Positions 47,460 to 64,000 of a stretch of DNA of 64,000 nucleotides are shown piece by piece (the first letter of the stretch is position 1; each line of letters begins with the position of its first letter). The notes under the pieces are model-generated. The model saw only the letters and a program-made list of their open reading frames with translations. It had not been told where the DNA came from and searched no databases. Both the position numbers and the translations under genes were made by a program. The stretch comes from Candidatus Magasanikbacteria bacterium RIFOXYC2_FULL_42_28 (GTDB lineage Bacteria; Patescibacteriota; Patescibacteriia; Magasanikbacterales; GWA2-37-8). The stretch lies in assembly GCA_001784435.1 (NCBI GenBank), contig MFQZ01000010.1, positions 105,960-169,959 of the forward strand, in the 5' to 3' direction.

Positions 47460-47460
47460 A

Positions 47461-47703: not shown

Positions 47704-47714
47704 TTGTGATAATC

Positions 47715-47748: not shown

Positions 47749-47786
47749 GTCTGCTTGCAGTGAATCGGCCGTAGGCCTGGTTCACT

Positions 47787-47830
47787 GTGCATAACTTATT
47801 TGCCAAACACGGTCGGGGGGGGGGTATACT
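47787..47830 (+). promoter_or_regulatory. conserved promoter module copy 4: TGTGCATAA - TTGCCA - 19 nt spacer ending in G10 - TATACT
   Basis: G-run at 47815-47824. Confidence 0.45.
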
Positions 47831-47862
47831 TTAAGTACAGTTTTATTTTTAATTTTAATAAT

Positions 47863-48396: not shown

Positions 48397-48451
48397 TGTT
48401 TGCCGACAAGAAGTTTAAAATAAAGTTTCAATAATTATTAAGAAGAATCCC

Positions 48452-48496
48452 GTTAACTCGGGATTCTTTGATTTTATTTCGTTTATATAGTACAAT
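48452..48496 (+). promoter_or_regulatory. class-2 module: hairpin gaatcccgttaactcgggattc + TTGATT - 17 nt - TACAAT
   Basis: Similar modules at 50138-50196 and 52058-52109 with a conserved ctttgattttatt..tatagtaYaat. Confidence 0.45.
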
Positions 48497-48585
48497 TACT
48501 TTCGCGTAAGTATTGACAAATAAATAATTTGGTGTTATAATTCTAATACAAATATGCGTAAATTTGTATTAAATTCTATACAAAT

Positions 48586-49776
48586 ATGTTAAAAAGAGTA
48601 CTTTTTTATGATATTTTAGGGCAAATTGACCATAAAAATGCTTTGGTAGTTACCGGTATGCGCCAAGTGGGCAAAACCACCCTAATGAAGCAAATTTTTG
48701 AGGAAATTGGCCAAGATAAGTCAAAATTATGGTTTGATTTTGAAAATCCGCTGGATATGAAGGTTTTTGAGGATATTGATTACAATGTCATCTATACTCG
48801 TCTGGCGCAAATGGCTGGTAATACTAAAAATCGGTTGTATATTTTTATTGATGAAATTCAGAATTTCCCGGAAATCACCAAAATCATAAAATATTTAATT
48901 GATCATTATGGCGTGAAGTTTTTAGTAACCGGATCGTCTAATTTTTATTTGAAAAATTTATTTCCAGAAAGTTTGAGTGGACGAAAATTTTTGCATGATT
49001 TGTCACCGTTAAGTTTTAAAGAATTTTTATATTTTCACGATCAAATTTCTTTGGACGATGCCAAACGAAATGATTTGGTATCAATGCTTCATTCGCACGC
49101 GCTCATAGAAATTAAAAAATTTGAACCATATTATGATAACTATTTGCGTTATGGTGGTTTTCCCGAAGTGGCGATGGAGGTGGACAATGAATTAAAAAAA
49201 GAAATTCTTAAAAATATTTTTAAGTCATTTTTTGAAAAGGATTTAAAAATTCTCTCCGACCACAAAGATATTCGCGAATTACGTGATTTGCTTTTACTTT
49301 TAGTGCCACGAGTTGGCTCGATGTTGGATATTTCCAAAGTTGCAAGTGAGTTGGGGGTAGAACGCGCAAAAATTTATAGTTATTTGGAATTTTTACAAGG
49401 CACTTTTATGATTCGTCTTTTGCCGAAATTTTCGAAAAGTATCGATCGTGCTGTTGCTGGTGGGAAAAAAGTATATTTTTCTGATAATGGATTACTGGGC
49501 GCGATCGGCTCCGTGAATGACGCGCAATTATTGGAAAACGCTGTTGTTAATCAATTGGCAAATTATGGCGATTTAAGTTTTTATAATAAACGTAACACCG
49601 CGGAGATTGATGTGATTTATAATAAAAAAATTGCTATAGAAATCAAAGCATCCGGATCAGAGTCTGATCGGCGAAAATTAACCGAATTGTCGGGTAGTTT
49701 GGGGATTAAACAGAATTATATTATTTCTAAAAATTTTGTTGAGAAAGATGGTTTTGTTTCGCCGGCGCAGTTGTAG
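48586..49776 (+). CDS. AAA+ ATPase of the COG1373 type (AAA_14 + DUF4143-like)
   Basis: P-loop [12 protein letters not shown]; Walker [10 protein letters not shown]; 3' end fused to the groEL-tail duplicate. Confidence 0.6.
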
Positions 49777-50030
49777 CCGAAGAAGTCAAACGTCGTGAAG
49801 GCAATGTCGGCTATAACGCCGCGACTGGTGAATACGAGGACTTGGTCAAAGCCGGTATTATTGACCCGACAAAAGTAACACGTACAGCCTTGCAAAATGC
49901 CGCGTCAATTGCCGGAATGTTGCTCACTACCGAAGTCGTTATCACCGATATTCCAAAAAAAGATGAACTGGCGATGCCGGGTGGTGGTATGTCGGGAGGA
50001 ATGGGTGGTATGGGTGGAATGTATTAAATG
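49777..50030 (+). pseudogene. duplicated 3' fragment of groEL (about 85% nucleotide identity to 44350-44612)
   Basis: Encodes ..[83 protein letters not shown]; differences mostly synonymous. Confidence 0.8.
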
Positions 50031-50079
50031 GTGGTATGCTTGCCCGCCTCTGGCGGGGGGGATGTATTAAAACACCATC

Positions 50080-50124
50080 TGTCATTCCGAGCGAGGCCAA
50101 AGGCCGACGAGGAATCTCTGTCTA
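50080..50124. repeat. family A repeat (tgtcattccgagcgaggccaaaggccgacgaggaatctctgtcta)
   Basis: Follows the groEL-tail duplicate, like the repeats after the real groEL. Confidence 0.7.
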
Positions 50125-50137
50125 CACACACAACCAT

Positions 50138-50196
50138 AAAAATAATCGACCGCTCTGGTTCGTTCTTTTGATTTTATTTAGATGGTATAGTATAAT
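50138..50196 (+). promoter_or_regulatory. degenerate terminator T copy + class-2 promoter (TTGATT - 17 nt - TATAAT)
   Basis: aaaaataatcgaccgctctggttcgttcttttgattttatttagatggtatagtataat. Confidence 0.45.
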
Positions 50197-50234
50197 TATA
50201 ATATTAAATATGATATAGTTATAATATAAATTTT

Positions 50235-50906
50235 ATGTCTAAATCTATTAATTTTAATACTGGAGCATTGGTTAATGCTGATTTGAATTTGGAGCAGTTT
50301 GAAGAAAGTTTGCAGCGTATTTTAATTGAATCACTCGTTAAGGTTGGCATACTTAAATTAGGAGAAGAAGACCATTATTACGATATATCGCAGATATATT
50401 TTTATAGAGAAAGCGTGGAGCTGAACAAAAGGATGAATGTAAAAGCAGAAAAAAATATTCGGGGCTCTGAAGAAAGCGACGCATATGAAACCCCAACTTC
50501 GCTTGACCCTGCAAAAATTCCAGGGTACTTCCTATACATTGAAGAGCATGGTTCGGAGGTGGTCGATCCGAATGATGAGGTTATATTGGTTGTTATTACA
50601 AAATTTAATGAAATTGTCGATCGGATTAATAAGAATATCACTGAGACGGGTAGACAAGATAGTCTTGAAATGCAAAATGATTTACAAGCTTATTACGACT
50701 TGATTGCTGGTTTAAGAAAACATGGGGAAATTAATATGTCTAAAATTAAAAGCGAAATTGATTCTGTCATTAATCTGGCGTTAGAACAGAGTCTTGAAAA
50801 TGCCAGGTCTGAAATGTCTGAAAGGAAGCATTCAAGTGAAGATGTTCGTGAGGATGAAACAAGTTGGGGGTTTGATTTACCGTCTGGAAAGAAACGTTTA
50901 AATTAA
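50235..50906 (+). CDS. hypothetical protein
   Basis: 223 aa acidic ORF downstream of a class-2 promoter. Confidence 0.4.
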   Translation: MSKSINFNTGALVNADLNLEQFEESLQRILIESLVKVGILKLGEEDHYYDISQIYFYRESVELNKRMNVKAEKNIRGSEESDAYETPTSLDPAKIPGYFLYIEEHGSEVVDPNDEVILVVITKFNEIVDRINKNITETGRQDSLEMQNDLQAYYDLIAGLRKHGEINMSKIKSEIDSVINLALEQSLENARSEMSERKHSSEDVREDETSWGFDLPSGKKRLN

Positions 50907-50976
50907 CCGCTTATCTGTTGTGTTAATTGTTACACAAGTACGAAAGAGTAATTTTTTTAATTTATAAAAAAACGGT

Positions 50977-51618
50977 ATGTATTTAAAAAAAATGTTCGGA
51001 CTCGATAGAGGAACCCAGCCACAAATCAAGATCGGAATCAATCACGAAGAGGTCGACTTGGATCAGTTGGCAAGGCTAGATAGTATTGCTAATTTTGCAT
51101 TTGACCCTTCAGAAACGGATAGTACATTGTTGGTGGAGAAGAGGGATCAAATTGCTCAATATGCCGACGACGCAAGATTATTAATAAAATTTGAATCCGG
51201 TGGTTTGGCGGTTTTAAGCGCTGGTGAAATTCGTCGTGAATTGGAAGAAGATTTTGTTTCTACTAGTCGTTTGCATGATAATTTTTTTGTGGTCGATGAT
51301 GTAAACCCAGATCAAAAAAAAGCAATCTTGGAAGAGCGGCGAAACAAGGAGCTATTGAGATATGATAATTTGCCAGAAAAATTTGCCGCCGAGCACGGGA
51401 TTGGTGTGTTGGCAAATGAAGATGTTGTAGTATATTTAGAAAATATCAAATATTTGGCTCCGCCAGTTCAAAAGACAGTTGCTCAATATCATCAGATGTT
51501 TGATTTGAAATCTCGACGAGAGCGATATGGTCAGAGCGGTGAAGATTCCTTGTTTGCGCTGTTGGAAGAATGGAACTACGCCGGTGGTATCGTTTTTATC
51601 GGTAGGTCCTCGTTGTGA
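50977..51618 (+). CDS. hypothetical protein
   Basis: 213 aa ORF. Confidence 0.4.
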   Translation: MYLKKMFGLDRGTQPQIKIGINHEEVDLDQLARLDSIANFAFDPSETDSTLLVEKRDQIAQYADDARLLIKFESGGLAVLSAGEIRRELEEDFVSTSRLHDNFFVVDDVNPDQKKAILEERRNKELLRYDNLPEKFAAEHGIGVLANEDVVVYLENIKYLAPPVQKTVAQYHQMFDLKSRRERYGQSGEDSLFALLEEWNYAGGIVFIGRSSL

Positions 51619-51901
51619 TGACCAAGATAAAGTTGCTAAAGAATTATCAGAAAAATATTACGCGGATCGAAGCAAGCGTCGTTCTTTAGCGGTTGAAAAA
51701 GCACTCGCTACTATCAATGCTTTGTCTGATTTTTGGGATCAGGTTGAAAATGGACTAGATGAAACGGTGCTAGTTGTTTTTCCTGGTGCTAAACCAGTGA
51801 ATGTCAGTAAAAATGAAATCAGGAATTTTGTTAACACACAAACAATCCGACAGTTAGGAGTGCCGACAGTTAATGGTAAGCCGATACCTGAACTGGAGTG
51901 A
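51527..51901 (+). CDS. hypothetical protein; overlaps the previous ORF by about 90 nt in another frame (possible frameshifted continuation)
   Basis: No in-frame ATG after the overlap; could be one gene interrupted by a frameshift. Confidence 0.3.
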   Translation: MVRAVKIPCLRCWKNGTTPVVSFLSVGPRCDDQDKVAKELSEKYYADRSKRRSLAVEKALATINALSDFWDQVENGLDETVLVVFPGAKPVNVSKNEIRNFVNTQTIRQLGVPTVNGKPIPELE

Positions 51902-52057
51902 TAATTTGGTCGGAGCAAATTTATAAGAAGTATATAAATAATAAATGATGGTTGGCAAGCCATAATGCTAGTGATGGTAAGAAAATAATTTTAGTTGTAC
52001 ACGTATTTAAATCATAATATAAATACGTATATAAAATATATTAGAAATTTAAAAAAG

Positions 52058-52109
52058 GAACGGGCTAAATGGTTCGTTCTTTGATTTTATTCTATTTATA
52101 TAGTATAAT
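52058..52109 (+). promoter_or_regulatory. class-2 module: hairpin gaacgggctaaatggttcgttc + TTGATT - 17 nt - TATAAT
   Basis: ATG of the downstream gene at 52119. Confidence 0.45.
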
Positions 52110-52118
52110 AAACCTATT

Positions 52119-52610
52119 ATGATCAACTACTTAGTCGGTTTATTTTCGTCTTGGCCGCCGGAATTGGCTACATTTTTTTTAGCAATGTTGCCGGTGGGGG
52201 AGTTGCGCTTGGCAATTCCAGTTGCTATTTTTGGTCTGCATTTATCAAAATGGAGCGCTTATTTTTGGTCGGTTTTGGGTAATTTGGTGCCAGCGCTATT
52301 AATTTTATATTTTGCAAAATATTTTCATAATTGGGTTGATAAAAAATCCGGTTTTTTTGGTAAGCGTTGGATAAACGCTTTGGACCGCGCTCATAAAAAA
52401 TTTGAAGGTGATTATTTAAAATACCGATTAGTCGGGTTGTTGATTTTTATTGGCGTACCTCTGCCACTTACTGGTGCTTGGACTGGATGCCTGGCTGCAT
52501 TTGTATTTGGTATTCCGTTTAAAAAAGCTTGGCCGTTTGTGGTGGGCGGAGTGTTGTTATCGGGGGTATTGACTTTGCTTTTAACAGTCGGGGCGGATAA
52601 GATATTTTAG
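52119..52610 (+). CDS. small polytopic membrane protein (putative small multidrug export family-like)
   Basis: LPVGELRLAIPVAIFGL resembles the P.GELR.AIP motif of the Sm_multidrug_ex family; 4 predicted TM helices. Confidence 0.45.
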   Translation: MINYLVGLFSSWPPELATFFLAMLPVGELRLAIPVAIFGLHLSKWSAYFWSVLGNLVPALLILYFAKYFHNWVDKKSGFFGKRWINALDRAHKKFEGDYLKYRLVGLLIFIGVPLPLTGAWTGCLAAFVFGIPFKKAWPFVVGGVLLSGVLTLLLTVGADKIF

Positions 52611-52620
52611 TATTATTATT

Positions 52621-52700
52621 TTGTCATGCCGATGAAAATCGTCATCTCTGTCCGTTGGTTATTGATTAAGATAGAGATCCCGACTTTCGTCGGGATGATA
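52621..52700. repeat. family A composite (two inverted copies: ttgtcatgccgatgaaaatcgtcatctctgtcc ... gatcccgactttcgtcgggatga)
   Basis: Upstream of prfB. Confidence 0.7.
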
Positions 52701-52710
52701 GTAAAAAAAT

Positions 52711-53784
52711 ATGATAGAACAATTAACAAATCTCCAACAAAAAATTACCGAAGCAATGGCGCTTTTGAAATTGCCGGATTTAAAAAATAAAATGGCGCAG
52801 TTAGCCGAGCAAATGAACGCGCCGAATTTTTGGTCTAACCAGAAGAACGCGACAATGGTTTCGCAAGATTATCAGGATATAAAAAACGAAGCAGAAAAAT
52901 GGGAAGATTTGTTAAAGCGGGCGAATGACCTGATGGAATTAGCCGAGTCGGGTGATGAATCGCTGGCTAATGAAATTGACGCACAAACCACCGAATTACA
53001 AAAAGAATTTGAAAAATATGAATTGTCTTTGTTGTTAAACGGTCCATATGACACGAGTAATGCTATTGTCGCGATTCATTCTGGTAGTGGTGGCACTGAA
53101 GCGCAAGATTGGGCGGAAATGTTGTTTCGGATGTATAGTCGTTTTTGTGAAAATAAAAAATGGAAAACAGAAATTTTGGATGAAGCGCGCGGAGCCGAGG
53201 CTGGTTATAAATCCATTATGTTTCGGGTATCTGGTCGGTATGCGTTTGGTAATTTAAAATCCGAACACGGCGTGCATCGTTTGGTGCGCATCTCGCCCTT
53301 TGATGCGGAAAAAATGCGTCATACCTCGTTCGCGCTTGTGGAAGTTTTACCGGAATTGCCGGATAATGTGGAAGTTGAAATTGATCCAAAAGATTTGCGT
53401 ATTGATACATTTATGAGCGGAGGCAAAGGCGGGCAGTCGGTGAATACCACTTATAGCGCGGTGCGCATTGTGCATCTGCCGACCAATATCACGGTGTCGT
53501 GCCAAAATGAACGCAGTCAACAACAAAACAAAGAAACCGCCATGAAAGTTTTGCGGTCAAAATTATATTTATTGGAAATGGAACGCTTGGCCAAAGAAAA
53601 ACAGGACTTGCGCGGGGAATATAAGAGTGCCGAATGGGGCAATCAAATTCGTTCGTATGTTTTGCATCCGTATCATATGGTAAAGGATTTGCGTAGTAAT
53701 TATGAAACTAGTGATGACGTCGGCGTGTTGGAAGGTGATTTGGATGGGTTGGTGGAGGCGTATTTGAAGTGGTTGAAGAAGTAA
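52711..53784 (+). CDS. prfB: peptide chain release factor 2 (no programmed +1 frameshift)
   Basis: SPF tripeptide (RISPFDAEK) and GGQ motif; single continuous ORF. Confidence 0.9.
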   Translation: MIEQLTNLQQKITEAMALLKLPDLKNKMAQLAEQMNAPNFWSNQKNATMVSQDYQDIKNEAEKWEDLLKRANDLMELAESGDESLANEIDAQTTELQKEFEKYELSLLLNGPYDTSNAIVAIHSGSGGTEAQDWAEMLFRMYSRFCENKKWKTEILDEARGAEAGYKSIMFRVSGRYAFGNLKSEHGVHRLVRISPFDAEKMRHTSFALVEVLPELPDNVEVEIDPKDLRIDTFMSGGKGGQSVNTTYSAVRIVHLPTNITVSCQNERSQQQNKETAMKVLRSKLYLLEMERLAKEKQDLRGEYKSAEWGNQIRSYVLHPYHMVKDLRSNYETSDDVGVLEGDLDGLVEAYLKWLKK

Positions 53785-53786
53785 TG

Positions 53787-53852
53787 CCAAAATCCAAATT
53801 TCCAATTTCCAATCAAATCCAAAATCCTAATATCAAATTTGAAATTAAAAAA
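53787..53852. repeat. family D element (left half: ccaaaatccaaatttccaatttccaatcaaatccaaaatcc)
   Basis: Shares 30+ nt with the copies at 7347 and 39326. Confidence 0.65.
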
Positions 53853-53854
53853 AT

Positions 53855-54460
53855 ATGCAAATTTTTAAATTTGAAAATTTAGAAGAAATTATTGATTTGA
53901 TAAAAGCAGGTGGTGTAGTTATCTTCCCCACCGAAACATCCTATGGTTTAGGTTGTGTTGCCACGAACCAAAAATCGGTTGATAAAATTTTTGCAATTAA
54001 AGGGCGGGTGGGTGATAAGCCGTTACTTGTAGTTGTGCCAGATGTAGCGATGGCGAAAAAATATTTGGAGTGGAATGCGACGTTAGATAATTTAGCAAAA
54101 AAATATTGGCCTGGGGCGCTAACAATAGTAGGTAAGTGTCGGAAAAAAATATTTGGAAAAAATTTAGTGAGTGGGGCGGTCGGTAAAGATAACACCGTGG
54201 CGGTTCGTGTTACGGCTCATCCCTTTTTAAAATTAATTACCGAAAAATTAGGCGTGCCACTCGTGGCGACTTCGGCGAATTTAGCCGACGCGGGGGAAAT
54301 TTACGATTCGGCCGAGGCGATTAAAATTTTTGCCAATTTAGAAAATGCGCCGGACGCGATTGTGGACGCGGGCGTGTTGCCAAAAAATTTGCCGTCGACA
54401 ATTGTGAGTGTAGTAGATGATAATATAAAAGTATTGAGACAGGGGAGCGTGCGGTTGTAA
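53855..54460 (+). CDS. tsaC: threonylcarbamoyl-AMP synthase (YrdC/Sua5 family)
   Basis: IFPTETSYGLGCVATN...KGR..KPLLVVV motif. Confidence 0.85.
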   Translation: MQIFKFENLEEIIDLIKAGGVVIFPTETSYGLGCVATNQKSVDKIFAIKGRVGDKPLLVVVPDVAMAKKYLEWNATLDNLAKKYWPGALTIVGKCRKKIFGKNLVSGAVGKDNTVAVRVTAHPFLKLITEKLGVPLVATSANLADAGEIYDSAEAIKIFANLENAPDAIVDAGVLPKNLPSTIVSVVDDNIKVLRQGSVRL

Positions 54461-54580
54461 TTTTCAATGATCAATTTTCAATCAATTATCAATGCTCAAT
54501 TTTCAATTAGTGTTTGGAAATTATGGAATTGAAAATTCACTGAAAATTGAAAATTGGTAATTGAAAATTATTAATATTGT
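54461..54580. repeat. AT-rich palindromic element (caattttcaat / attgaaaattg units)
   Basis: Multiple inverted copies of ttttcaat and attgaaaa. Confidence 0.5.
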
Positions 54581-55810
54581 GTGTTAAATCAACATAAAGC
54601 ATATTATTGGCTTATCGTTCTTACGGCCTATGCCGCCGGTGCGTTTTTGATCCTAAATGCTTGGGAAGGGGTAAATTTGAGTTGGGAGGCCTCTACGCCG
54701 AATTATCCCATTCATAATTTGCATTTATCCTACGGCAATAGTAAGCCACCGGCACGTGTTGTAAAGGGGCTGTATTTAACCGCCTATTCCGCTGGCAATC
54801 CAGCTAAAATTGACGAAATAATCAACTTGATTGATAAGACAGAATTAAACGCGGTCGTGATTGATATTAAAGATTATAGCGGTTTAATTTTTTATCCATC
54901 GCAAGTGCCGCTCGTGGTAAAAATTAACGCCTCGGAAAATCGTTTGCGTGATATTGTCGCGACTATAAAAAAATTACATGATCACAATATATATGTAATC
55001 GCTCGGCAAACGGTTTTTCAAGATCCTTTTTTGGCCGAAGCACGGCCGGAGTGGGCGATTAAATCAAAAAGTGGGGGATCCGTCTCTGCTACGGCTACGC
55101 CGGACAAGTTATGGCGCGACAACAAAGGTTTAACTTGGGTTGACCCCACCCGTAAGGAAGTTTGGAATTATAATTTGGCCATCGCGCGCGAGGCGGCAGA
55201 ATTAGGCTTTGATGAAATAAATTTTGATTACGTGCGCTTTCCGTCGGACGGGCCGATGAGTCAAGTGGTGTATAGTGATACTCGGAAATTATACGAAATA
55301 ATGGGAGAATTTTATAAATTTATCGGGGCGGGAATGAAAGGTGCACCGGTTTGGATTTCGCTTGATATGTTTGGATTTGTAATGGAAAAATCCGGTGAGG
55401 ACGATATGCGTATTGGCCAACGCGTGGTGGACGCGGTTAATTTTACTGATTATATTTCGCCGATGATGTATCCGTCGCATTATCCGTCCGGCCACTTAAA
55501 TTTAAAAAATCCGGCGGCGTTCCCTGGCGCGGTGATTGATAATGGGATGAAAATGGGTGAACATTTTTTTACAACGTCCACACGCGCGCAAGTCCGGCCA
55601 TGGCTCCAAGCCTTTAATATGGGGGCGATTTATGATGCGGAAAAAATTCGCGCGCAAATTGATATGGTGGAGAAATATCCGAACGCGGGGTGGTTGTTGT
55701 GGAATGCGTCGAATAGATATTCAGATGCGGGACTCACCGTTTGTCATCCCGATGCGCCCGAGCGAAGCGACAAGTACTCTTGGGGTGAAAATCGGGGTCT
55801 CTGTCCGTAA
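54581..55810 (+). CDS. TIM-barrel putative glycoside hydrolase-like protein (DUF4015/GHL-type), N-terminal TM
   Basis: GFDEINFDYVRFP motif typical of GHL10/DUF4015 proteins; C terminus encoded by a family A repeat. Confidence 0.45.
   Translation: MLNQHKAYYWLIVLTAYAAGAFLILNAWEGVNLSWEASTPNYPIHNLHLSYGNSKPPARVVKGLYLTAYSAGNPAKIDEIINLIDKTELNAVVIDIKDYSGLIFYPSQVPLVVKINASENRLRDIVATIKKLHDHNIYVIARQTVFQDPFLAEARPEWAIKSKSGGSVSATATPDKLWRDNKGLTWVDPTRKEVWNYNLAIAREAAELGFDEINFDYVRFPSDGPMSQVVYSDTRKLYEIMGEFYKFIGAGMKGAPVWISLDMFGFVMEKSGEDDMRIGQRVVDAVNFTDYISPMMYPSHYPSGHLNLKNPAAFPGAVIDNGMKMGEHFFTTSTRAQVRPWLQAFNMGAIYDAEKIRAQIDMVEKYPNAGWLLWNASNRYSDAGLTVCHPDAPERSDKYSWGENRGLCP
55741..55808. repeat. family A repeat forming the 3' end of the preceding CDS
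   Basis: ttgtcatcccgatgcgcccgagcgaagcgacaagtactcttggggtgaaaatcggggtctctgtccgt. Confidence 0.7.
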
Positions 55811-55825
55811 TAAAGTATTATTAAT

Positions 55826-55925
55826 GTCAAATTTCCAATTTCCCATGTCAAATCAAATCCAAAATCCAAATTACGAAATTGACATTTTGGCTTTGACATT
55901 GATTGGAAATTGGAAATTTGGATTT
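55826..55925. repeat. family D AT-rich palindromic element
   Basis: caaatttccaatttcccatgtcaaatcaaatccaaaatccaaa ... tttgacattgattggaaattggaaatttggattttg. Confidence 0.7.
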
Positions 55926-55939
55926 TGAAATTATCACCT

Positions 55940-56896
55940 ATGCACTTCTTTACCCCCAAAGCCATTCAAAACCTTTGCCAACAATATGGCCTAAAACCAT
56001 CGCGCGATTATGGTCAGAATTATTTGTTGTCGTTAGAGCCGATTGAGGCGATGCTTAAAGCGGCCGAGATTAAAAAGACCGATACCATCGTGGAAATTGG
56101 CCCTGGTTTTGGCGCGCTTACATGTGGCTTGGCTGATGAGGCCGGTAAAGTGATTGCGTTTGAAATTGAGAAAAAAATTGAAAAATATTGGCAGGAAAAA
56201 ACCAAAGAATATCCGAACGTGGAAATTGTGTGGGGGAATGTATTGAGAATGTTTTGTCATTTCGAGCGAGGCCTCAAGGCCGACGAGAAATCTCCATCCG
56301 ATGCGATTGACGATAATGGAGATCCCCCACATTCGTTCGGGATGACAGTGGGCGAGCCGTATAAAGTCGTCGCTAACATTCCTTATCAGATTACTTCCCC
56401 CTTAATTAAATTATTTTTAGAAGATATAAAAAACAAACCTGAGTTGATGGTTCTTATGGTGCAAAAAGAAGTGGCCGAGCGCATTTGCGCCAAGCCCGGT
56501 GATATGTCGGTGCTTGCGATTGCAGTACAATATTTTGCGACGCCGGAAATAATTATTCATGTCCCTCGTCATTTTTTTTATCCCATTCCGGAAGTTGATT
56601 CGGCGGTGATTAAAATTACTCTCAAAAAATTTGATAAAAATCAAGAAGAAAATACTAAACAATTTTTTAAATTAGTCAAAACCGGATTTTCCAGTCGTCG
56701 TAAAATTCTTGTCAAAAATTTATTACCACTGGTCGGGGGTGGGTCGGGGCTTAAAAAATTACAAGAAATTTGGGAGAAATTGGGTTACTCACGCACCATT
56801 CGAGCGCAGGAATTAAGCGTTACTGACTGGATAAAATTGGCGCAAGAGTTGGCGCAGAGTTATCCACATACAAAAAAAGATGAAGATGTGGTATAA
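55940..56896 (+). CDS. rsmA: 16S rRNA (adenine1518/1519-N6)-dimethyltransferase
   Basis: GQNYLL, VEIGPGFGALT and NIPYQITSP motifs; about 26 aa in-frame repeat insert; start ATG 55940. Confidence 0.9.
   Translation: MHFFTPKAIQNLCQQYGLKPSRDYGQNYLLSLEPIEAMLKAAEIKKTDTIVEIGPGFGALTCGLADEAGKVIAFEIEKKIEKYWQEKTKEYPNVEIVWGNVLRMFCHFERGLKADEKSPSDAIDDNGDPPHSFGMTVGEPYKVVANIPYQITSPLIKLFLEDIKNKPELMVLMVQKEVAERICAKPGDMSVLAIAVQYFATPEIIIHVPRHFFYPIPEVDSAVIKITLKKFDKNQEENTKQFFKLVKTGFSSRRKILVKNLLPLVGGGSGLKKLQEIWEKLGYSRTIRAQELSVTDWIKLAQELAQSYPHTKKDEDVV
56254..56330. repeat. family A repeat in frame inside rsmA
   Basis: ttgtcatttcgagcgaggcctcaaggccgacgagaaatctccatccg... encodes FCHFERGLKADEKSPSDAIDDNGDPP. Confidence 0.7.
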
Positions 56897-56920
56897 TAAA
56901 GAAGTAAATTAATCCTATCT

Positions 56921-57601
56921 ATGGCCGAAAATAACGAAGAACCGGCCGTAAAAAATAATTTGTCTAAAGAGCAAAAAATTGGTTTTATTTTAATGCTCTT
57001 TTTTGCTATTTTCGCGATTGGTTTAGGCGTCCTCCAAATTCGCAATACTTTCCACGCGCCGTTTGCGTTAAATAGTCAGATTCCGAATGCAGTTAAAGAC
57101 GAAGTTAATACCGTTGAGGCCTTGCGCTATCGCGACACTGACCGCGACGGCTTGAATGATTTTGATGAAATTTATGTTTATACCACCAGTGCGTATATTG
57201 TCGATACTGATTCTGATGGTTTGGCTGACAAAGAAGAGGTTGACGGTGGCACCAATCCGCTTTGCGCCGAAGGGGCTGATTGCGCGACGCTCGCGAGCGC
57301 TGGAGCAGAAGAGCCATTATCCGGCACCAGCACTTTTGTCGGTTTGCCCGGAGCAAATGATTTAACTGATTTTGGCCCTATCCCGGTTGACTTGGAAGTG
57401 GCCTTAAAAGATCCGGCGCAAGTCCGTGTTTTGTTGGCGCAGGCCGGGGTGCAAAAAGAATTAATAGAAAAGATTTCAGATGCTGATTTAATGAAAATGG
57501 TAGCGGAAGTTTTAGCAGCTGATTTATCTACCAACCAGGACACCGGCAGTTCTATCGATGCTTTAAATCGTTTGTTGTCTACTACTACCACTAAACAATA
57601 A
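56921..57601 (+). CDS. membrane protein with thrombospondin type-3-like Ca-binding repeats
   Basis: TM GFILMLFFAIFAIGLGVL; DTDRDGLNDFDE and DTDSDGLADKEE repeats; stop TAA sits 2 nt before the next ATG. Confidence 0.55.
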   Translation: MAENNEEPAVKNNLSKEQKIGFILMLFFAIFAIGLGVLQIRNTFHAPFALNSQIPNAVKDEVNTVEALRYRDTDRDGLNDFDEIYVYTTSAYIVDTDSDGLADKEEVDGGTNPLCAEGADCATLASAGAEEPLSGTSTFVGLPGANDLTDFGPIPVDLEVALKDPAQVRVLLAQAGVQKELIEKISDADLMKMVAEVLAADLSTNQDTGSSIDALNRLLSTTTTKQ

Positions 57602-57603
57602 TT

Positions 57604-60600
57604 ATGCGTCAACCGCCTAAAAAATTAGGTCTTTCGGCACTGTTAGCGATGTTTGTCGCGACCACGATGTTTGGTTCGCTTTTTACTTTAACTCCGGCGC
57701 GCGCGCAATGGACGATTGTTGGCGACTTACCGCGTATGGCGACTGAAATCGGTGAAAAAATCAAAGAAGGATTGGGTGTCGCGGTTTTAAATGGCGCGTT
57801 GCGAGCGGTTTCATACGCGGCGCGTAAAATCGCTTATGACGCGGCCGTATGGGTGGCATCGGGTGGCAAAGGTCAACAGCCGTTGGCTTTTAGCAAAGGG
57901 TTTGGCGCTTATATGAAAGATGTGGGCTCGGCGTCGTTTGGCGAAGCCGTGTCTTCAATCGAAGATCAATTTGGCGTAAGCATCTGTCAGATACCGGACG
58001 TAAAATTGGATTTGGCTTTACGGATTGGCATTCGCGGGTTAAACACGGTTGAACCTAAACGGCAAGGAGATTGCGATTTTCAAACATTTACGAAAAACTG
58101 GAGTTCGGAAAATTTAAAAAGTAAATATGGCTCTGTTGAGGGCTTAACTAAACAATTTAACGCGTCGCTTAAAACCGAGAATACGGATTTTGGTGTTTAT
58201 TTGGACTCGGTGGCTAAAATTGATGAATATACTAAAAAAAGCCGTGAGGCCTTGCTTTTGGATCGTCAAGAAGGCCAGGGAACAAAAAATTTAACCGATT
58301 ATGTTTCCGGTAATATTTTGACACCAGCGCAACAAGTTAAGAAATTTATTGATGATAACAGTGTGGGCGAACAGCAAAAAGCCGATCAAGCCACCATATA
58401 CTCGGCGATTGGGAGCGGTTTTGTCCAGGTGATTCCTTCTACCATCTCAATGTTTTTAAACACTTTGGCCGGCACGATGCTGAAGAATTTTATGACTAAT
58501 GGCACGTTGCCGTTTGGTTTGGGTTGCGTTGGCGAGAATAATAAAGATTGTTTGGGTGGTAACCCGGCGGAATTTGCCGGTAGTGGCGCGCGCGGTGGTC
58601 GGCAAGCGGCGCAAGCCGTGTTTAGCGAGTTGCTTGTTCCAACGATTAATCCAAACATTAGTTTTGATATTGTCGCCGAATTAAGCAGTTGTCCGGACAC
58701 GCCGTCGGCGTTTAATTGCCGAATGGATGGGGATTTAGTCGCCGCGCTTCAAAGTGCCTTTATTGTCGGTGGAGAACCGATGACCATAAGGGAGGCGTTA
58801 GATAAAGGTTATTTGCATAAAGATTGGCGCTTGTTGCCACCAAGTCGTCCGGAAAATCAAATTGATCGGGCTTATGAAACCGCCTATACTTATGCCAATA
58901 TTAAGGCCTTGCGTTTGGCGCGAATTTTGCCACTTGGTTTTGAAATTGCGGCTTTGGAAAGCGACCCTGATAATCCCTGGAAATTAGGTGAAGTGGTGGG
59001 CATGGAAGAGGGTGATGGCACCGGTTGGGAAGATTGCACTGATGTTGATAATAACGGCACCCCCGAATATGACGCCGCCAAAAAATTCTGCCACTTAATT
59101 GATCCTAATTGGATTTTGAAAGCGCCTAAAAGTCGGTGCAATGCTTTTGTATTTGGCAATCAACCGTTATCCGGTGGTGTGCCTAATCGCCTACAAGAAT
59201 GTGTTGATTTGAGCAGTGTGGTGGCTTACAATTCCGACAAAACGCCTTTGTCTTATGCCTATTGCGCGCGCGAAAAAAATGTTTGGAAATCAAACGCCGA
59301 CACTTGCGATAGTCAATACGCCACCTGCTTGGCTTACACCGCGCCCGATGGGCAACAGGTTGGGTATTTACAACGTACTTTAAATACCGGCAATTGCGAT
59401 GCCAGCAATGTCGGCTGCAGTGCTTATAGTTTAACGCAAAATTCCTCTGGAATTTGGCAACAGCCGGCGTTTGATGCAACTTTGGCGAATTTTAATCGGG
59501 GCATTCATTTTAATAATAAATTATCGTCAGCTTGTAGCGCCAATTCAGCCGGTTGTTCAGCATTCACATTGGCCGGCAATTTCCCCCCTTCTGCCCGAGG
59601 AGGGGGCGAGGGGGTGGTGGGAGCATTGTATTTACGTAAAGCCCCGGATTATTTAGGATGTTATGACGCCGAACCGGCCGTCGCGGGTGTAAAATGGCCG
59701 ACCACCACCGCTGAATTATCAATTATTGCTGTTAACAAAAAACCGCAATGCGCCGATTATTCCCAAGCGTGCATTCCGAGTGAAGTTGGTTGTAATATGT
59801 TTACGGCTGTAAAAAGCGGTTGGCAGATACCGGGCAAATTTACACCAGCGACGATTAAAAGTGACGGCACCGGCATTGAAAAATGGAACGACCAGTGTGA
59901 TGCCAAATGCGATGGTTATGATGGCTATGTCCGTTTGGCTGATAATTATTCCAGCAGTTCACCTGTGGATTATATCATTCCGTCCACCAACGCGACTTGC
60001 GCCCGAGAGGAAGTCGGTTGTACCGGTTTCACCAATATGAGCGCGGTATATGAGGGTGGGGAACAGGTGGAATATTTCTCGCTGTTGCGTTCGTGTATCA
60101 AGCCGGACGCGACTAAGCAAAAGAATTTTTATACTTATGAGGGCTCAACTTTGGGCGGGTATCAATTAAAGGTCTATACTTTGGAAAAAGATGAGGAGGG
60201 CGGGCCGAAATATTTTTATAAAGATGATGCCGAGCGCCTTACTTTTAACCAGCTTTGCAGTGAAGAAAAATACAAAGATAATACCGCCGCGACCGATTGT
60301 CGACAATTTAACGATGACCAAGGTGCTGTTTACTACCGTTTATTAGGTAAAACAATTGTCGTTTCGGACAAATGCACGCCTTATCGGTTAAATTCCACGG
60401 AAATGGAAATATCAACGCCAGGGAGTGAAAAATGTTTCCAAAACGGTGAATACAAAGATGGCTTTTGCTATTACAATGGCTTACCGGGTGGAGTGATCGC
60501 GTCCGAAGGCCAAAGTAATTCTTGTAGCGCCACGGCAGAGTCCTGCCACGCCTATAAAGGCAACGCCGGCAACAATATTGAAAATGTAGCCAGTTTAGAT

Positions 60601-63600
60601 TTTGAAAATTCGGATACGCCTTTAAGCGGTTGGAACTCTGGCGCGGTGTTATCAGTTGAAAGTACCAAAGTGGGCGGGCATTCGGTTGGTTATGTCGGCA
60701 ACGGCGCTTTGGAGTGGAGCGCGCAAGCCGATGATTCTGATACGGTTGGCTTGGTTACCAGCACCAGTTACTCTTTAAGTTTTTGGGCCAAAGGCCGAGT
60801 GGGTGGCGATGGTAATTTAAATGTTATTTTGGCCGGTGTGTCACTCGGCACAATCCAACTAAGCGATGTTTGGCGATTGTATGAATTTGGCGCCAAACAG
60901 ATTGTTAGCGGTGCTAACGCTAAATTGATTATCAACAATTCTGCGTCGGTCGCTAAAACAATTTATTTGGATAATTTACATTTAACCAAAGTAGTGGATT
61001 CGTTGTATTTAGTGCAAAAGAAATTAACCGTTGACCCGTTGTGCGACAGTAATTTAACCGATAATTTACCCGGCGAAGCGCTGGGGTGCAAGGGCTATAC
61101 CGTGCCGGATGTTTCCGCTACTTTTTATCTTACCAATTTCAGTTATTTATGCCGTGAAAACGCGATTGGGTGCACGGCTTTGATTGATACGCAGAATACT
61201 TTGGATACGGATAAGCCCAAGGCGTATAATGTCCAGTTGTTCGGTGGTAGTGGTGATTTAGTGCGGGTGGTAATAGAAGAGAAAGAATTTTCTTGTCAAA
61301 TTTTGGTGGGGGAAGACAAATGTCATGTAGATATTGACGGATTTGAAAAACTATTAACTGGCGGTATTAGCGGGGCGTTTGTTGACAGTATTGAGGAAGC
61401 AAAAATTGAATATAAAAATAATGTTGGGACGTGGATAGAATATTATCCCCAAAAAGAACCTGAATTTACCACTTCCACCGCCTTTATTCCCGCCGACACC
61501 GCCACTTCCACTCCAATCTATTTAGTCGCCAATAAAGAAGCCACCTGTAATCAAGTTGATCTCGGTTGTACTTACGCCGGCCTTCAAAAACAAACTCCCA
61601 CCGGTATTCAATTTACCACTGTTACTATTAAAAATGACCCAGCGCAATACGACGCGCAAGGCGGTGGTACTCTGTGTCAAGCCGAAGCGGTGGGGTGCAA
61701 CGCCTATACTTCCGGTGCCGGTAGCACCTATTATTTCAAAGATCCGATTGCTACCGGTCAAAAAGTTTGCGCTTACAAAGCGCGCGCGACCGCCCTTGGA
61801 TCGGACGCGTCCGGTTGGTTTTGGAAAGATGTGGGACGATGTGGTGGTGCTGATACTGGCGCTTACTGTTCGTCCAATTCTGATTGCGCGGTTGGAGTTG
61901 GTTGTGATAAAACACAAGATTGGGCTTGTTACCCGGATTATCGGTTAAGCGGTAATGATTTTGGCCTTTGGTCTTATGGCGATCGGACAAAATATCAAAA
62001 TTTCGTGGGGGAATGTCCTACGGCTCAAAGTGGTTGTACTGAATTTATTGATCGCAACGCCTCGGATCCGGCAACTGATTTGGCCTACACTTCGTATTTT
62101 TGGATAAAAAATAGCAAAATTGACTATGATACTTGCGCTGGTAAAGTAAGTTTAAGAGAGGGATGTGTTTTGTTTGACGAGACCGATGTTCCGCGCAAAC
62201 AGTGGAATATGGTGGCCAGTTACGAAGCCAGCGAAAACAACGACTCGCGTTTGACCGCGCCGGTTGATGTTAGCGGTCGCAATGATGCTAACCAAATTAT
62301 CAAAGTAACGCGCGACCGCGAGTGTGGTGAATGGTTGCAGTGTAAACGTTCGCATTCGGTTTTGGATACCAGCCAAAGTCCGGTCGGTAATAATATTTTC
62401 AAAGAAGTGTGCGAGGCGGTAGGTCGATGTGACGAAGGGCCAGCGGATAGTGGCGGAGACAGTATCACCAATTGCGGGCGTTTTGTGTCCGCGCCGTCAA
62501 AAGTTTTGACAGTAGAGGATTATCGTCGGCGCGATATTAATTGGGGTGGCATGGATTATTCTGGGTATTCTCTTTTGAATATGTATCAACCGGACGCGTT
62601 GGAACAATTTAATATCAGCGCTACCACTCGACCGGATTGGCGTTTAGTAAAACGAGTCCAATGTACGGCCGGTTTCGGCACCGAACAAGTGTGTCTTCCG
62701 CCCGCGCAAAACAATTCGTATGGCTGTAAAGTCAAGTATGGTGCGTCGGCAATTTCAACTGATGATGTGAGGTGTGCCAACAATGCTGTTTGTCGTAATC
62801 AAGTTTGTGTTCAAACTCATCGGGGCGATGATGATTTTGATGGTCCAACCGTTCCCGCTGAATCCAATTATACCGAAAATAAATTAGAGCCCGCTTGTCG
62901 CGCTTATCCGGAGGTTGATGCGCCGTTTCCGACCACACCGCAAATTAGTGGATCTGATCTGACTAACGCCTCCTCATTTTATCAGGCGGCGAATAAATGT
63001 AACGAAGCGATATCCGGCACGCGCAGTTTCACCTTGGATTGGGCCTGCGAGTGTGATTACACTAAAGTAACTTATGGTGAAACTCAAGGACTAAAACGCT
63101 ATTTTAATTATTTGGAACCAAACAGTCGCGCGACCGAACCGGGTGTGCCGGTTGGCATTTGCCAAAATGGTAATGTGGGTATTAGTTGTAGCACCGATGC
63201 CGAATGTCAAGTTGGTGGCGCTGTTGGTGGTTTTTGCGCTCTGAAACAAAAAGAATCCAAACTGCTTGGTTGGCGCGGTTATTGTTTGGAGCCGGATTAT
63301 TCGCGCTTGGCTTTTGCCGACCCGAATAAATATGCCTGTTTGTCGTGGTTGCCGGTGGGTTCATTGTCTGGTTTTGCCGATATTGACAACCAACATTTGG
63401 AAGCGGGGTATTTGCCAAGTGAGCAATTGCGTAGTTTGGGCTATACGCCACAAGGTGATGATTTGTTTGGGCAGTTTTATTGTCAGCAGTCAACCCGATT
63501 TGATAATTTGCTAGTTAATCGCGATGGTTCTAACGCTATCAAGGTAGATACCGCTAATGTTGATGATTGCTATAGTGATGATGTGAGTGTGGCCACACCG

Positions 63601-64000
63601 CATTCGCTGTTAAATAATTTTTCTGTTAGTACTAATATTATGCCAGATTTGAGTGCGCGCTGTTTCAATATAGCCAATACACAAGAAACAAATTTAAAAC
63701 AATCAGACATAGAGTATATTAAATTTACTGTGGCGGAAAACACTGATGAAAGTCCAAAACAGAACACTAATTTATTTATTTACCCCAATGTTTATAAGAA
63801 TGACAATAAACCGTATATTGTCGGGCATTTGCCACTTAAAGGAGATAGTAGTAAAAGTGGTATTTATGTGGCTGGTAATTTTATGGGCAAAAAGAATTTG
63901 CCGGCGTTCTTTTATAGTTCACAGAAAGATGATAAGGACGGCGACGGGACGTATGGCTACATTAATGACGAAGGGGTTTTGAGTGTAAAATACAAAGAAG
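57604..64000 (+). CDS. giant Cys-rich secreted protein (>2130 aa), 3' end beyond window
   Basis: No + strand stop in this frame to the window end; spot translations at 57604, 60001, 62401 and 63967 are all open; signal peptide MRQPPKKLGLSALLAMFVATTMFGSLFTLTPARA; many Cys pairs. Confidence 0.7.
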   Translation, partial: MRQPPKKLGLSALLAMFVATTMFGSLFTLTPARAQWTIVGDLPRMATEIGEKIKEGLGVAVLNGALRAVSYAARKIAYDAAVWVASGGKGQQPLAFSKGFGAYMKDVGSASFGEAVSSIEDQFGVSICQIPDVKLDLALRIGIRGLNTVEPKRQGDCDFQTFTKNWSSENLKSKYGSVEGLTKQFNASLKTENTDFGVYLDSVAKIDEYTKKSREALLLDRQEGQGTKNLTDYVSGNILTPAQQVKKFIDDNSVGEQQKADQATIYSAIGSGFVQVIPSTISMFLNTLAGTMLKNFMTNGTLPFGLGCVGENNKDCLGGNPAEFAGSGARGGRQAAQAVFSELLVPTINPNISFDIVAELSSCPDTPSAFNCRMDGDLVAALQSAFIVGGEPMTIREALDKGYLHKDWRLLPPSRPENQIDRAYETAYTYANIKALRLARILPLGFEIAALESDPDNPWKLGEVVGMEEGDGTGWEDCTDVDNNGTPEYDAAKKFCHLIDPNWILKAPKSRCNAFVFGNQPLSGGVPNRLQECVDLSSVVAYNSDKTPLSYAYCAREKNVWKSNADTCDSQYATCLAYTAPDGQQVGYLQRTLNTGNCDASNVGCSAYSLTQNSSGIWQQPAFDATLANFNRGIHFNNKLSSACSANSAGCSAFTLAGNFPPSARGGGEGVVGALYLRKAPDYLGCYDAEPAVAGVKWPTTTAELSIIAVNKKPQCADYSQACIPSEVGCNMFTAVKSGWQIPGKFTPATIKSDGTGIEKWNDQCDAKCDGYDGYVRLADNYSSSSPVDYIIPSTNATCAREEVGCTGFTNMSAVYEGGEQVEYFSLLRSCIKPDATKQKNFYTYEGSTLGGYQLKVYTLEKDEEGGPKYFYKDDAERLTFNQLCSEEKYKDNTAATDCRQFNDDQGAVYYRLLGKTIVVSDKCTPYRLNSTEMEISTPGSEKCFQNGEYKDGFCYYNGLPGGVIASEGQSNSCSATAESCHAYKGNAGNNIENVASLDFENSDTPLSGWNSGAVLSVESTKVGGHSVGYVGNGALEWSAQADDSDTVGLVTSTSYSLSFWAKGRVGGDGNLNVILAGVSLGTIQLSDVWRLYEFGAKQIVSGANAKLIINNSASVAKTIYLDNLHLTKVVDSLYLVQKKLTVDPLCDSNLTDNLPGEALGCKGYTVPDVSATFYLTNFSYLCRENAIGCTALIDTQNTLDTDKPKAYNVQLFGGSGDLVRVVIEEKEFSCQILVGEDKCHVDIDGFEKLLTGGISGAFVDSIEEAKIEYKNNVGTWIEYYPQKEPEFTTSTAFIPADTATSTPIYLVANKEATCNQVDLGCTYAGLQKQTPTGIQFTTVTIKNDPAQYDAQGGGTLCQAEAVGCNAYTSGAGSTYYFKDPIATGQKVCAYKARATALGSDASGWFWKDVGRCGGADTGAYCSSNSDCAVGVGCDKTQDWACYPDYRLSGNDFGLWSYGDRTKYQNFVGECPTAQSGCTEFIDRNASDPATDLAYTSYFWIKNSKIDYDTCAGKVSLREGCVLFDETDVPRKQWNMVASYEASENNDSRLTAPVDVSGRNDANQIIKVTRDRECGEWLQCKRSHSVLDTSQSPVGNNIFKEVCEAVGRCDEGPADSGGDSITNCGRFVSAPSKVLTVEDYRRRDINWGGMDYSGYSLLNMYQPDALEQFNISATTRPDWRLVKRVQCTAGFGTEQVCLPPAQNNSYGCKVKYGASAISTDDVRCANNAVCRNQVCVQTHRGDDDFDGPTVPAESNYTENKLEPACRAYPEVDAPFPTTPQISGSDLTNASSFYQAANKCNEAISGTRSFTLDWACECDYTKVTYGETQGLKRYFNYLEPNSRATEPGVPVGICQNGNVGISCSTDAECQVGGAVGGFCALKQKESKLLGWRGYCLEPDYSRLAFADPNKYACLSWLPVGSLSGFADIDNQHLEAGYLPSEQLRSLGYTPQGDDLFGQFYCQQSTRFDNLLVNRDGSNAIKVDTANVDDCYSDDVSVATPHSLLNNFSVSTNIMPDLSARCFNIANTQETNLKQSDIEYIKFTVAENTDESPKQNTNLFIYPNVYKNDNKPYIVGHLPLKGDSSKSGIYVAGNFMGKKNLPAFFYSSQKDDKDGDGTYGYINDEGVLSVKYKE
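59581..59623. repeat. family C repeat in frame inside the giant protein
   Basis: ttccccccttctgcccgaggagggggcgagggggtggtgggagc encodes FPPSARGGGEGVVGA. Confidence 0.7.

Follow-up and report, generated by a model that had tools for sequence, protein, structure and literature searches.

The last 7,080 nucleotides (nt) of a 64,000-nt stretch of contig MFQZ01000010.1 from Candidatus Magasanikbacteria bacterium RIFOXYC2_FULL_42_28 (the whole stretch is referred to here as the window) contain two adjacent genes, A3J93_03650 and A3J93_03655. The first encodes a membrane protein with thrombospondin type 3 (TSP3) repeats and the second a giant, cysteine-rich protein that continues past the end of the window. 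Our analysis indicated that the giant gene is real and under constraint and that it heads a chromosomal type IV secretion system (T4SS) cluster, both in the source genome and in most relatives. The explanation that we favored, and to which we assigned an even chance, is that the two products form a surface module in which a disulfide-locked giant is held by a TSP3 anchor, contacts host glycans and probably serves the T4SS. A preliminary description of this DNA had proposed the giant as a candidate for host attachment; the secretion cluster lies beyond the view of that description and provides a more specific functional context.

The giant gene (UniProt A0A1F6NV51; 57604 to 64000, + strand, cut by the window end) was translated from the ATG at 57604, and the frame remained free of stops for 2,132 codons up to position 64000, as the preliminary description had reported. 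The chance of a stop-free run of this length at the base composition of the window is ~10^-62. Retrieval of the rest of the gene gave a complete protein of 2,703 amino acids (aa) with a mass of ~290 kDa, the window holding the first 2,132 of the 2,703 codons. An exact match was found in database protein P0229 (OGH87593.1/A0A1F6NV51), which comes from a Candidatus Magasanikbacteria metagenome-assembled genome, and the other full-length entry, P0001, differed from the window translation at one residue (S1476I). The corresponding locus sequence (L091) matched the window with 100% identity over 7,080 nt and placed the giant stop 571 codons past the window end.

Features of a Sec signal peptide cleaved by signal peptidase I were present at aa 1 to 34 (57604 to 57705, +), consisting of two lysines (K6-K7), a hydrophobic core at aa 8 to 30 and then A32-R33-A34 followed by Q35, with cleavage predicted at A-R-A↓Q. 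This signal had been noticed in the preliminary description and recurred widely, a hydrophobic segment being found at the N terminus of 195 of 210 full-length giant homologs and P-A-x-A being visible in the listed locus N termini. Kyte-Doolittle 19-residue windows of ≥1.6 were confined to aa 8 to 30 of the giant protein, which upheld the earlier statement that it has no transmembrane (TM) helix, and 197 of the 210 homologs lacked a hydrophobic segment past residue 60. An LPXTG sortase signal with a hydrophobic tail was not found in the giant protein, whose C terminus reads ...WTPFRGKILVPPSQ (..ILVPPSQ). The 210 homologs likewise lacked LPXTG and shared a conserved extreme C-terminal tail, ..F.G.[IV][IL]V[AP]P... 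Taken at the level of sequence, these features suggested a Sec-exported giant protein that lacks an anchor of its own.

The partner gene, A3J93_03650 (56921 to 57601, +), was characterized by open reading frame (ORF), Pfam and hydropathy analyses. Its product is predicted to be a single-pass membrane protein of 226 aa with a short cytoplasmic N terminus, a TM helix at aa 17 to 44 (56969 to 57052, +; Kyte-Doolittle 19-residue mean, 2.78), an extracytoplasmic part with one Cys pair (C115 and C121) and a helical C-terminal region. A motif scan located two TSP3-type calcium-binding motifs, both conserved in the family, namely, DTDRDGLNDFDE at aa 72 to 83 (57134 to 57169, +; family consensus, rDTD.DGLnDfdE) and DTDSDGLADKEE at aa 95 to 106 (57203 to 57238, +). 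The DxDxDGxxDxxE loop was present, and Pfam TSP3_bac (PF18884) matched aa 95 to 114 with 25.4 bits against a cut-off of 25. Judged by these motifs, the partner is a genuine member of the TSP3_bac repeat proteins. It shares two such loops with bacterial TSP3 proteins such as Myxococcus MtsD but differs from them in having only two repeats, placed in a 226-aa single-pass membrane protein. Furthermore, its score with the MtsD model (NCBIfam NF047639) was 25.9 against a cut-off of 800 and came from the TSP3 repeats only, which argues that it is not an MtsD orthologue. Within the partner family (n = 79; median length, 216 aa), one N-terminal TM helix was detected in 77 members, two DxDxDG motifs in 60 and exactly two Cys residues in 75.

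The preliminary description had the gene for a membrane protein with two TSP3-like repeats ending 2 nt before the giant gene, and this was found to be correct. At the junction (57599 to 57606, +), the TAA stop of the partner gene (57599 to 57601) and the giant ATG (57604) are separated by a 2-nt spacer, "tt". This arrangement was examined in 76 loci with enough upstream sequence. In 74 of them the gene immediately before the giant gene, in the same orientation, was a TSP3 homolog, in the remaining 2 the homolog lay 1.4 to 1.8 kb upstream, and the gap from partner stop to giant start had a median of 9.5 nt (≤10 nt in 40 loci and ≤30 nt in 64). A GGAGG-type Shine-Dalgarno sequence was not found upstream of the giant ATG. 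From the 2-nt spacing, the lack of such a sequence and the tight spacing throughout the family, we infer that translation of the two genes may be coupled. Since the giant protein appears to lack an anchor, the simplest reading is that the partner would hold it at the membrane. A promoter and terminator scan of 53700 to 58000 performed no better than scans of shuffled sequence.

Searches for relatives of the giant protein indicated a large family. A word-indexed search detected 235 relatives; the 120 listed were mostly 2,500 to 3,300 aa in length, had 31 to 47% identity, mostly over >90% of the query, and were without exception named "hypothetical protein." When aa 1 to 1200 were compared by phmmer with 1.84 billion cluster representatives (clusters at 50% identity), 1,426 proteins were matched at an E value of ≤1e-3 and 1,081 at ≤1e-30, and the 150 matches listed aligned collinearly from the N terminus. 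A relative was encoded by 509 species-representative genomes (one genome per species scanned), and the informative titles among these named Magasanikbacteria, Patescibacteria or Parcubacteria, with Magasanikbacteria in the majority. Pfam and NCBIfam scans of the two proteins returned only TSP3_bac and a subthreshold match to the carbohydrate-binding module (CBM) family CBM_4_9, and DUF11, Big, Calx-beta and CARDB, the domains suggested in the preliminary description, were absent at an E value of ≤0.1 in Pfam. An earlier description of the giant family was not found in the literature searched, which included PMC12102498, PMC10633639, PMC11665869 and PMC12857230. The family can now be defined by its signal peptide, N-terminal motifs, a C-x5-GC motif and a C-terminal ..ILV[AP]P tail, and it is unmodelled by Pfam and NCBIfam.

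The rate of evolution of the giant protein was compared with that of its neighbors in the same loci. Identity to the window proteins was 70% for PrfA, 58% for DUF4015, 53% for TsaC, 47% for RsmA and 46% for the TSP3 partner; for the giant protein it was 38% over its alignable 81%. The giant protein thus appears to be constrained roughly like its housekeeping neighbors, except in a slot occupied by the CBM-like module and at aa ~1960 to 2400, and the gene is a single-copy, collinear and strongly constrained core gene of the whole lineage. A lineage-specific, rapidly evolving giant adhesin would not fit this pattern.

The giant protein could be divided into regions of distinct composition and conservation. 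The Cys-poor N-terminal region (aa 35 to 477; 57706 to 59034, +), delimited by conservation and AlphaFold2 modelling, was predicted to contain helices and then an alpha/beta module at aa ~350 to 480 and holds the highly conserved motifs AYDSAVWLASGGKGQ and RILPLGFEIAAL. Cys-rich core I (aa 478 to 990; 59035 to 60573, +) is rich in predicted beta-hairpins and carries repeated C-x5-G-C-x2-[FYAL], and Cys-rich core II (aa 1140 to 1960; 61021 to 63483, +) is predicted to be almost all beta, with ~40 conserved Cys residues; the CBM-like sandwich lies between the two. A poorly conserved region follows, running from aa ~1961 to ~2400 with 10 to 22% column identity, and its start occupies the window from 63484 to 64000 (+); the conserved C-terminal domain and tail are located beyond the window. 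In a 44-sequence alignment, conservation was 35 to 51% per 100-residue block up to ~aa 1930, with the cores at 40 to 50% and dips at the CBM-like domain and at aa 1201 to 1300. It then fell to 10 to 22% at ~aa 1960 to 2400 and came back up in the C-terminal ~270 aa.

The Cys richness and paired arrangement recorded in the preliminary description were borne out by the complete protein and its relatives. The portion within the window contains 77 Cys residues (3.6%) and the complete protein contains 96; of these 96, 76 were conserved at ≥90% in the 44-sequence alignment, and the 210 full-length homologs had a median of 104 Cys residues, the number being even in 84% of them. A Cys-Cys spacing of exactly 7 was observed in 11 cases and came from the C-x5-G-C-x2-[FYAL] motif, of which the giant protein has at least 9 occurrences. 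An internal duplication of the two Cys-rich cores was considered and rejected, the short C-x5-GC motif being the only element to recur.

Structure prediction by segments, a route indicated in the preliminary description, gave a CBM-like sandwich, and both models were of low confidence as a whole. The AlphaFold2 model of aa 1 to 1200 (29 sequences) had a mean predicted local distance difference test (pLDDT) score of 55, with helices at aa 1 to 350 scoring <50 and the alpha/beta module at aa 350 to 480 scoring 73 to 88, followed by beta-hairpins. The model of aa 1130 to 1960 (34 sequences) had a mean pLDDT of 62 and was almost all-beta, and no fold relatives of it were found in PDB (best E value, 0.16) or BFVD (best E value, 0.015). 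When PDB was searched by sequence, neither the whole giant protein nor a profile built from 78 sequences of the N-terminal 500 aa produced a credible match.

The sole domain of the giant protein recognized in the Pfam and NCBIfam scans was a CBM4/9/16/22-like beta-sandwich at aa ~995 to 1135 (60586 to 61008, +), which was delimited with Pfam, Foldseek and AlphaFold2. The corresponding Pfam family (CBM_4_9, PF02018) was precomputed in several of the giant homologs listed. A Foldseek comparison of the sandwich (aa ~1000 to 1130) with PDB detected CBM22-1 (4xuo) with an E value of 3.3e-6 and a TM-score on the target of 0.64, and further matches were to CBM4-2, CBM16 and CBM29, with TM-scores of 0.5 to 0.64 on the target. 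The sandwich had pLDDT scores of 70 to 84 and is predicted to adopt the beta-jelly-roll fold of the CBM4/9/16/22 (CBM-cenC) modules. Some giant homologs pass the Pfam model, and UniProt names the giant protein "CBM-cenC domain-containing protein"; unlike its namesakes, the module makes up ~5% of the length of its protein, has a sub-cut-off score and has no glycoside hydrolase attached. Cry and binary-toxin structures among the Foldseek matches were rejected (TM-score, ~0.15; root mean square deviation, >20 Å), the Cry matches being explained by the CBM-like nature of domain III of these toxins.

One relative, P0095 (3,300 aa), was collinear with aa 1 to 1030 of the giant protein and again from aa 1467, and ~1,000 aa of NHL beta-propeller repeats replaced aa ~1030 to 1466, that is, the CBM-like module and the adjoining segment. 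Because of this swap, the CBM region seems to behave as a slot for interchangeable binding modules. The CBM-like sandwich, the NHL swap and the poorly conserved region after aa ~1960 give some support to the giant as a candidate for host attachment. The preliminary description of a giant, Cys-rich, Sec-exported protein paired with a TSP3 protein is backed by conservation across the family, and the role in host attachment that it proposed for the giant is still a putative one.

The genomic context of the pair was then considered. Upstream of the giant gene, the window encodes PheST, DnaE, TsaD, IF-2, LeuRS, ComEC, NusA, YidC, GroEL, PrfA, TsaC, a DUF4015 glycosidase-like protein and RsmA, and the order GroEL ... 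PrfA-TsaC-(DUF4015)-RsmA-TSP3-giant was seen again in distant relatives. Downstream, 53 relatives had at least 6.5 kb of sequence, and in 42 of these a co-directional TrbL/VirB6-like gene (~1,050 aa) followed the giant gene at a median distance of 1.5 kb. The VirB6-like gene was followed in relatives by two unknown genes and by genes for PrgI (VirB3-like), a TraC-like protein and a VirB4 ATPase. In the source genome (L091/L092), the giant gene is followed by a gene for a 129-aa coiled-coil protein and then by a 1,587-aa VirB6/TrbL-like gene, which starts 580 nt past the giant stop on the same strand and whose product was 47% identical (E value, 5e-97) to a protein of another locus (L004) that passes Pfam TrbL (28.4 versus 25.9). 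Next come genes of 484 and 392 aa and an inserted block with two AAA_14/DUF4143 ATPases, two small ORFs and an AbiEii gene. Past this block are a 342-aa gene, PrgI, TraC-like and VirB4 (DUF87/AAA_10/P-loop_TraG) genes and two more genes, all on one strand.

Three further observations were made on genes in or near this cluster. The 1,587-aa VirB6/TrbL-like protein (L092, 2363 to 7126) is ~500 aa longer than those of relatives, with which its first ~400 aa alone align, and can be described as an extended VirB6 whose large C-terminal part is unassigned. In one relative (locus L004), the opposite strand between the giant gene and the T4SS genes encodes a 650-aa protein (18624 to 20576, -) with matches to MopE copper-binding and, faintly, to Stig1. 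The window also has a gene for a competence channel of the ComEC type at 34719 to 36272 (+), ~21 kb before the giant gene; in the ABY1 class, T4SS loci commonly have competence genes nearby (PMC12102498).

The T4SSs of Patescibacteria are widespread, chromosomal and of the monoderm MPF-FATA type, lack relaxases and are often found near ksgA (rsmA)/virB4 (PMC12102498). In the same phylum-wide survey, "no adhesins, such as PrgB, were detected" (PMC12102498). The Saccharibacterium Southlakia epibionticum, the one member of the Patescibacteria amenable to genetics, cannot grow epibiotically on its host without its T4SS and several surface adhesins that bind polysaccharides (PMC10633639; reviewed in PMC11665869 and PMC12857230).

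The explanation favored here, with its even chance, proposes that the two genes encode one cell-surface module of the Candidatus Magasanikbacteria cell. Sec would export the giant protein, roughly 48 disulfide bonds would lock it into a rigid, mostly beta ectoprotein of ~290 kDa, and the TSP3 partner would tether it at the cell surface, possibly in a calcium-dependent manner. The host envelope would be contacted by the CBM-like module, or by the NHL propellers that take its place in one relative, together with the variable region after aa ~1960. More tentatively, this contact would serve the neighboring T4SS, and the module would be a nonhomologous counterpart of the adhesins that monoderm conjugation uses instead of a pilus. 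The link to the T4SS is favored by the fact that both sets of genes encode envelope proteins, by their co-directional arrangement and by the survival of this arrangement despite mobile-looking insertions.

One of the nearest known comparisons is with PrgB/Asc10 of monoderm MPF-FATA conjugation systems. Like these adhesins, the giant protein is large, is probably exported by Sec and is encoded beside Gram-positive-type T4SS genes (PrgI, TraC-like, VirB4 and VirB6-like), and the shared role would presumably be the cell-cell contact that is made by the pilus in diderms. In contrast, there was no sequence or fold similarity between them, and the giant protein lacks LPXTG and the PrgB adhesin domains, none of which were detected by Pfam, NCBIfam and PDB sequence searches (the only match being the CBM-like one). 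It is also about twice as large, has ~96 conserved Cys residues, is chromosomal and vertically inherited and would be anchored via a separate TSP3 protein. Assignment of the giant to the PrgB/LPXTG adhesins, the S-layer proteins or the polymorphic toxins was rejected, a defining feature being absent in each case. A more specific proposal, which we regard as tentative and on the doubtful side, is that the giant and its TSP3 partner are the missing extracellular, host-contacting component of the T4SS, either a dedicated adhesin or a part of the conduit, and form a new nonhomologous class specific to Magasanikbacteria-like lineages.

Several observations weigh against the favored explanation. The strongly conserved core of the giant protein is more in keeping with a component of a structure or machine than with a fast-evolving adhesin of the classical kind, and the overall shape of the protein cannot be stated because both AlphaFold2 models are of low confidence. 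The Pfam CBM_4_9 match at aa 999 to 1067, with 21.5 and 21.3 bits (E value, 3e-4), did not reach the cut-off of 25.9. With respect to disulfide locking, a thiol-disulfide oxidoreductase such as DsbA or VKOR, the partner enzymes that the preliminary description had named for a check, was not found among the scanned window ORFs of ≥180 aa. These organisms are usually anaerobes, and it is a biochemical puzzle how a presumed anaerobe would form ~48 putative conserved disulfides when no obvious oxidoreductase is encoded nearby. The link to the T4SS is also weakened by the 11 of 53 loci that had no T4SS gene within 10 kb, all from a divergent clade (~31% identity, mostly ~3,000 aa), and by opposite-strand or unrelated genes that lie between the giant gene and virB6 in some relatives. 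Furthermore, gene order in this lineage is stable over >20 kb for functionally unlinked genes (NusA, YidC, GroEL, PrfA, TsaC and RsmA). As gene order is generally stable and RsmA is an equally constant neighbor, the T4SS adjacency is suggestive and not decisive, and a Kaiserbacteria-labelled homolog adds no independent evidence because it has the same synteny.

In a first alternative, which we consider unlikely, the giant would be a structural envelope protein, either S-layer-like or a wall-spanning scaffold, that maintains cell integrity or shape and plays no specific part in host contact or in the T4SS; the T4SS adjacency would then be inherited synteny. A single-copy, collinear and strongly constrained gene would suit such a role, the 20-kb neighborhood of unrelated housekeeping genes is equally syntenic, and the pair is kept in the 11 loci without a nearby T4SS. 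Disulfide locking combined with calcium-binding repeats is, moreover, typical of rigid extracellular scaffolds, as is established for TSP3 repeats. However, no SLH, S-layer or cell-wall-binding domain was detected at an E value of ≤0.1 in Pfam, and the CBM-like module, the NHL swap in one relative and the hypervariable region would be unexpected in a pure scaffold. The co-directional arrangement of the giant with the T4SS genes, at 580 nt from virB6 in the source genome, also argues against this alternative.

In a second alternative, the giant would be a built-in part of the T4SS, such as an extracellular conduit, a stalk or a pilus base, and not an accessory adhesin. The conduit, stalk or pilus base of diderm systems is formed by VirB7/9/10 or VirB5. 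Patescibacterial T4SSs lack recognizable outer components and adhesins (PMC12102498), which leaves room for such a part, and the giant gene leads the T4SS cluster in the same orientation, with a core whose conservation is comparable to that of machine parts and with greatly extended VirB6-like proteins (1,050 to 1,587 aa) encoded nearby. Against this, the T4SS occurs throughout the phylum (PMC12102498), whereas in the genomes and literature covered here the family was confined to Magasanikbacteria-like lineages. Sequence and fold searches revealed no resemblance to VirB components, and the giant is apart from the T4SS in 11 of the 53 loci. With a Sec signal of its own and a dedicated membrane partner, the giant protein would be exported without need of the T4SS, and overall we judged a built-in role to be quite improbable. 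A last alternative, a secreted enzyme or toxin attacking the host envelope (a giant hydrolase with a CBM or a pore former), has very little probability in our view: CBM-like domains usually accompany glycoside hydrolases, toxin structures did appear among the Foldseek matches and giant genes are implicated in cell-wall degradation in other ultra-small bacteria (Omnitrophota), but no catalytic domain was detected in Pfam and NCBIfam at E values of ≤0.1 to 1 or in PDB sequence searches, the toxin matches are accounted for by the CBM-like Cry domain III, and there were no RHS/YD repeats, no C-terminal toxin domain (the C-terminal domain being conserved) and no immunity-like neighbor, the downstream gene encoding the 129-aa coiled-coil protein.

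The giant protein belongs to a kind that is already known, giant surface proteins secreted by ultra-small bacteria that presumably live as episymbionts. As with the giant surface proteins of candidate phyla radiation (CPR) and DPANN episymbionts, its gene is the largest of the neighborhood, it appears to be secreted, annotated domains are few or absent, and its organism has a reduced genome and is presumed to be host dependent. Those proteins are usually lineage-specific, repetitive and fast evolving, whereas the present one is nonrepetitive, collinear and conserved across >1,000 sequence clusters, and its partner gene and position in the genome are both fixed. What is new is an unannotated, nonrepetitive family with ~48 putative disulfides, a dedicated TSP3 partner and a tie to a T4SS locus.

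A dispersed repeat was found within the giant gene. The preliminary description had reported a "family C" insert, and the repeat search and copy alignment confirmed an in-frame copy of this G/C-rich mini-repeat at 59583 to 59627 (+), which adds 13 residues (PPSARGGGEGVVG, aa 661 to 673; codons at 59584 to 59622) in a variable loop. The PPSARGGGEGVVG insert was missing from all 43 aligned giant homologs. Copies of ~45 nt are present in the window at 7736 to 7780 (-), 31131 to 31175 (+), 44665 to 44710 (+) and 59583 to 59627 (+), where 0.17 would be expected by chance. The family C core, CCTGCCCGAGGAGGGG...GGGTGGTGGGAGC, lies inside three ORFs (7531 to 8814, the Fpg-like 30776 to 31690 and the giant), all of which stay open across the copy, and one copy is intergenic. 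Folding of the element was no better than that of shuffled sequences (z = -1.35).

Other repeats were distributed across the window. A second short repeat, GCCGACGAGGAATCTCCATCC..., occurs at 56279 to 56317 within the RsmA ORF (55910 to 56896) and also at 22026 to 22064 and 50103 to 50141. The RsmA of the window has 328 aa, where relatives have 274 to 309, and in its Pfam match 258 profile positions are spread over 285 residues; the longer ORF and the stretched match suggest a second in-frame repeat insertion, in RsmA. Hairpin-type repeats of the families GTCATCCCGATGAAAATCGGGATCTCTGTC and ATTGTCATTGCGAGCGAAGCGAAGCAATCT are dispersed at 3216 to 3260, 15326 to 15370, 30733 to 30777, 52611 to 52655 and 55786 to 55808 and at 2286 to 2315, 22972 to 23001 and 31027 to 31056, and the 3' end of the DUF4015 ORF is supplied by one of the copies. 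AT-rich intergenic repeats with TTGGAAATTGGAAATT-like units, often as inverted pairs, were located at 53782 to 53878, 54459 to 54573, 55822 to 55937, 7343 to 7455 and 39323 to 39439. They flank several genes (PrfA/TsaC, TsaC/DUF4015 and DUF4015/RsmA), and none was found between the RsmA, TSP3 and giant genes.

A block of ~8 kb between GroEL and PrfA (44800 to 52700) contains hypothetical genes and is internally duplicated in places, with 300-nt and 222-nt repeats and a repeated terminator-like hairpin; the proteins encoded there include an AAA_14/DUF4143 ATPase and one with DUF4116. The downstream T4SS cluster (L092, 10001 to 14608) carries a further two AAA_14/DUF4143 genes and an AbiEii gene as insertions, and both blocks look like recurrent insertions of the same mobile or defense-type cargo. 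Small hypothetical genes in the variable GroEL-PrfA block are preceded by a conserved upstream element with a ten-G run (TTATTTGCCAAA..CGGTCGGGGGGGGGGTATAC), four copies of which were found (23080 to 23143, 44814 to 44842, 46535 to 46598 and 47785 to 47848). The ten-G homopolymer could allow slipped-strand switching. Elsewhere in the window, the leucyl-tRNA synthetase (LeuRS) ORF (31669 to 34788, +; 1,039 aa) has an alpha/beta-hydrolase or serine-hydrolase-like segment at aa ~486 to 660, between the editing and anticodon-binding parts.

A large part of bacterial diversity belongs to the Patescibacteria, which apparently live attached to other cells. The pair formed by the giant protein and its TSP3 partner provides a concrete candidate for how one large lineage of Patescibacteria may touch its host.

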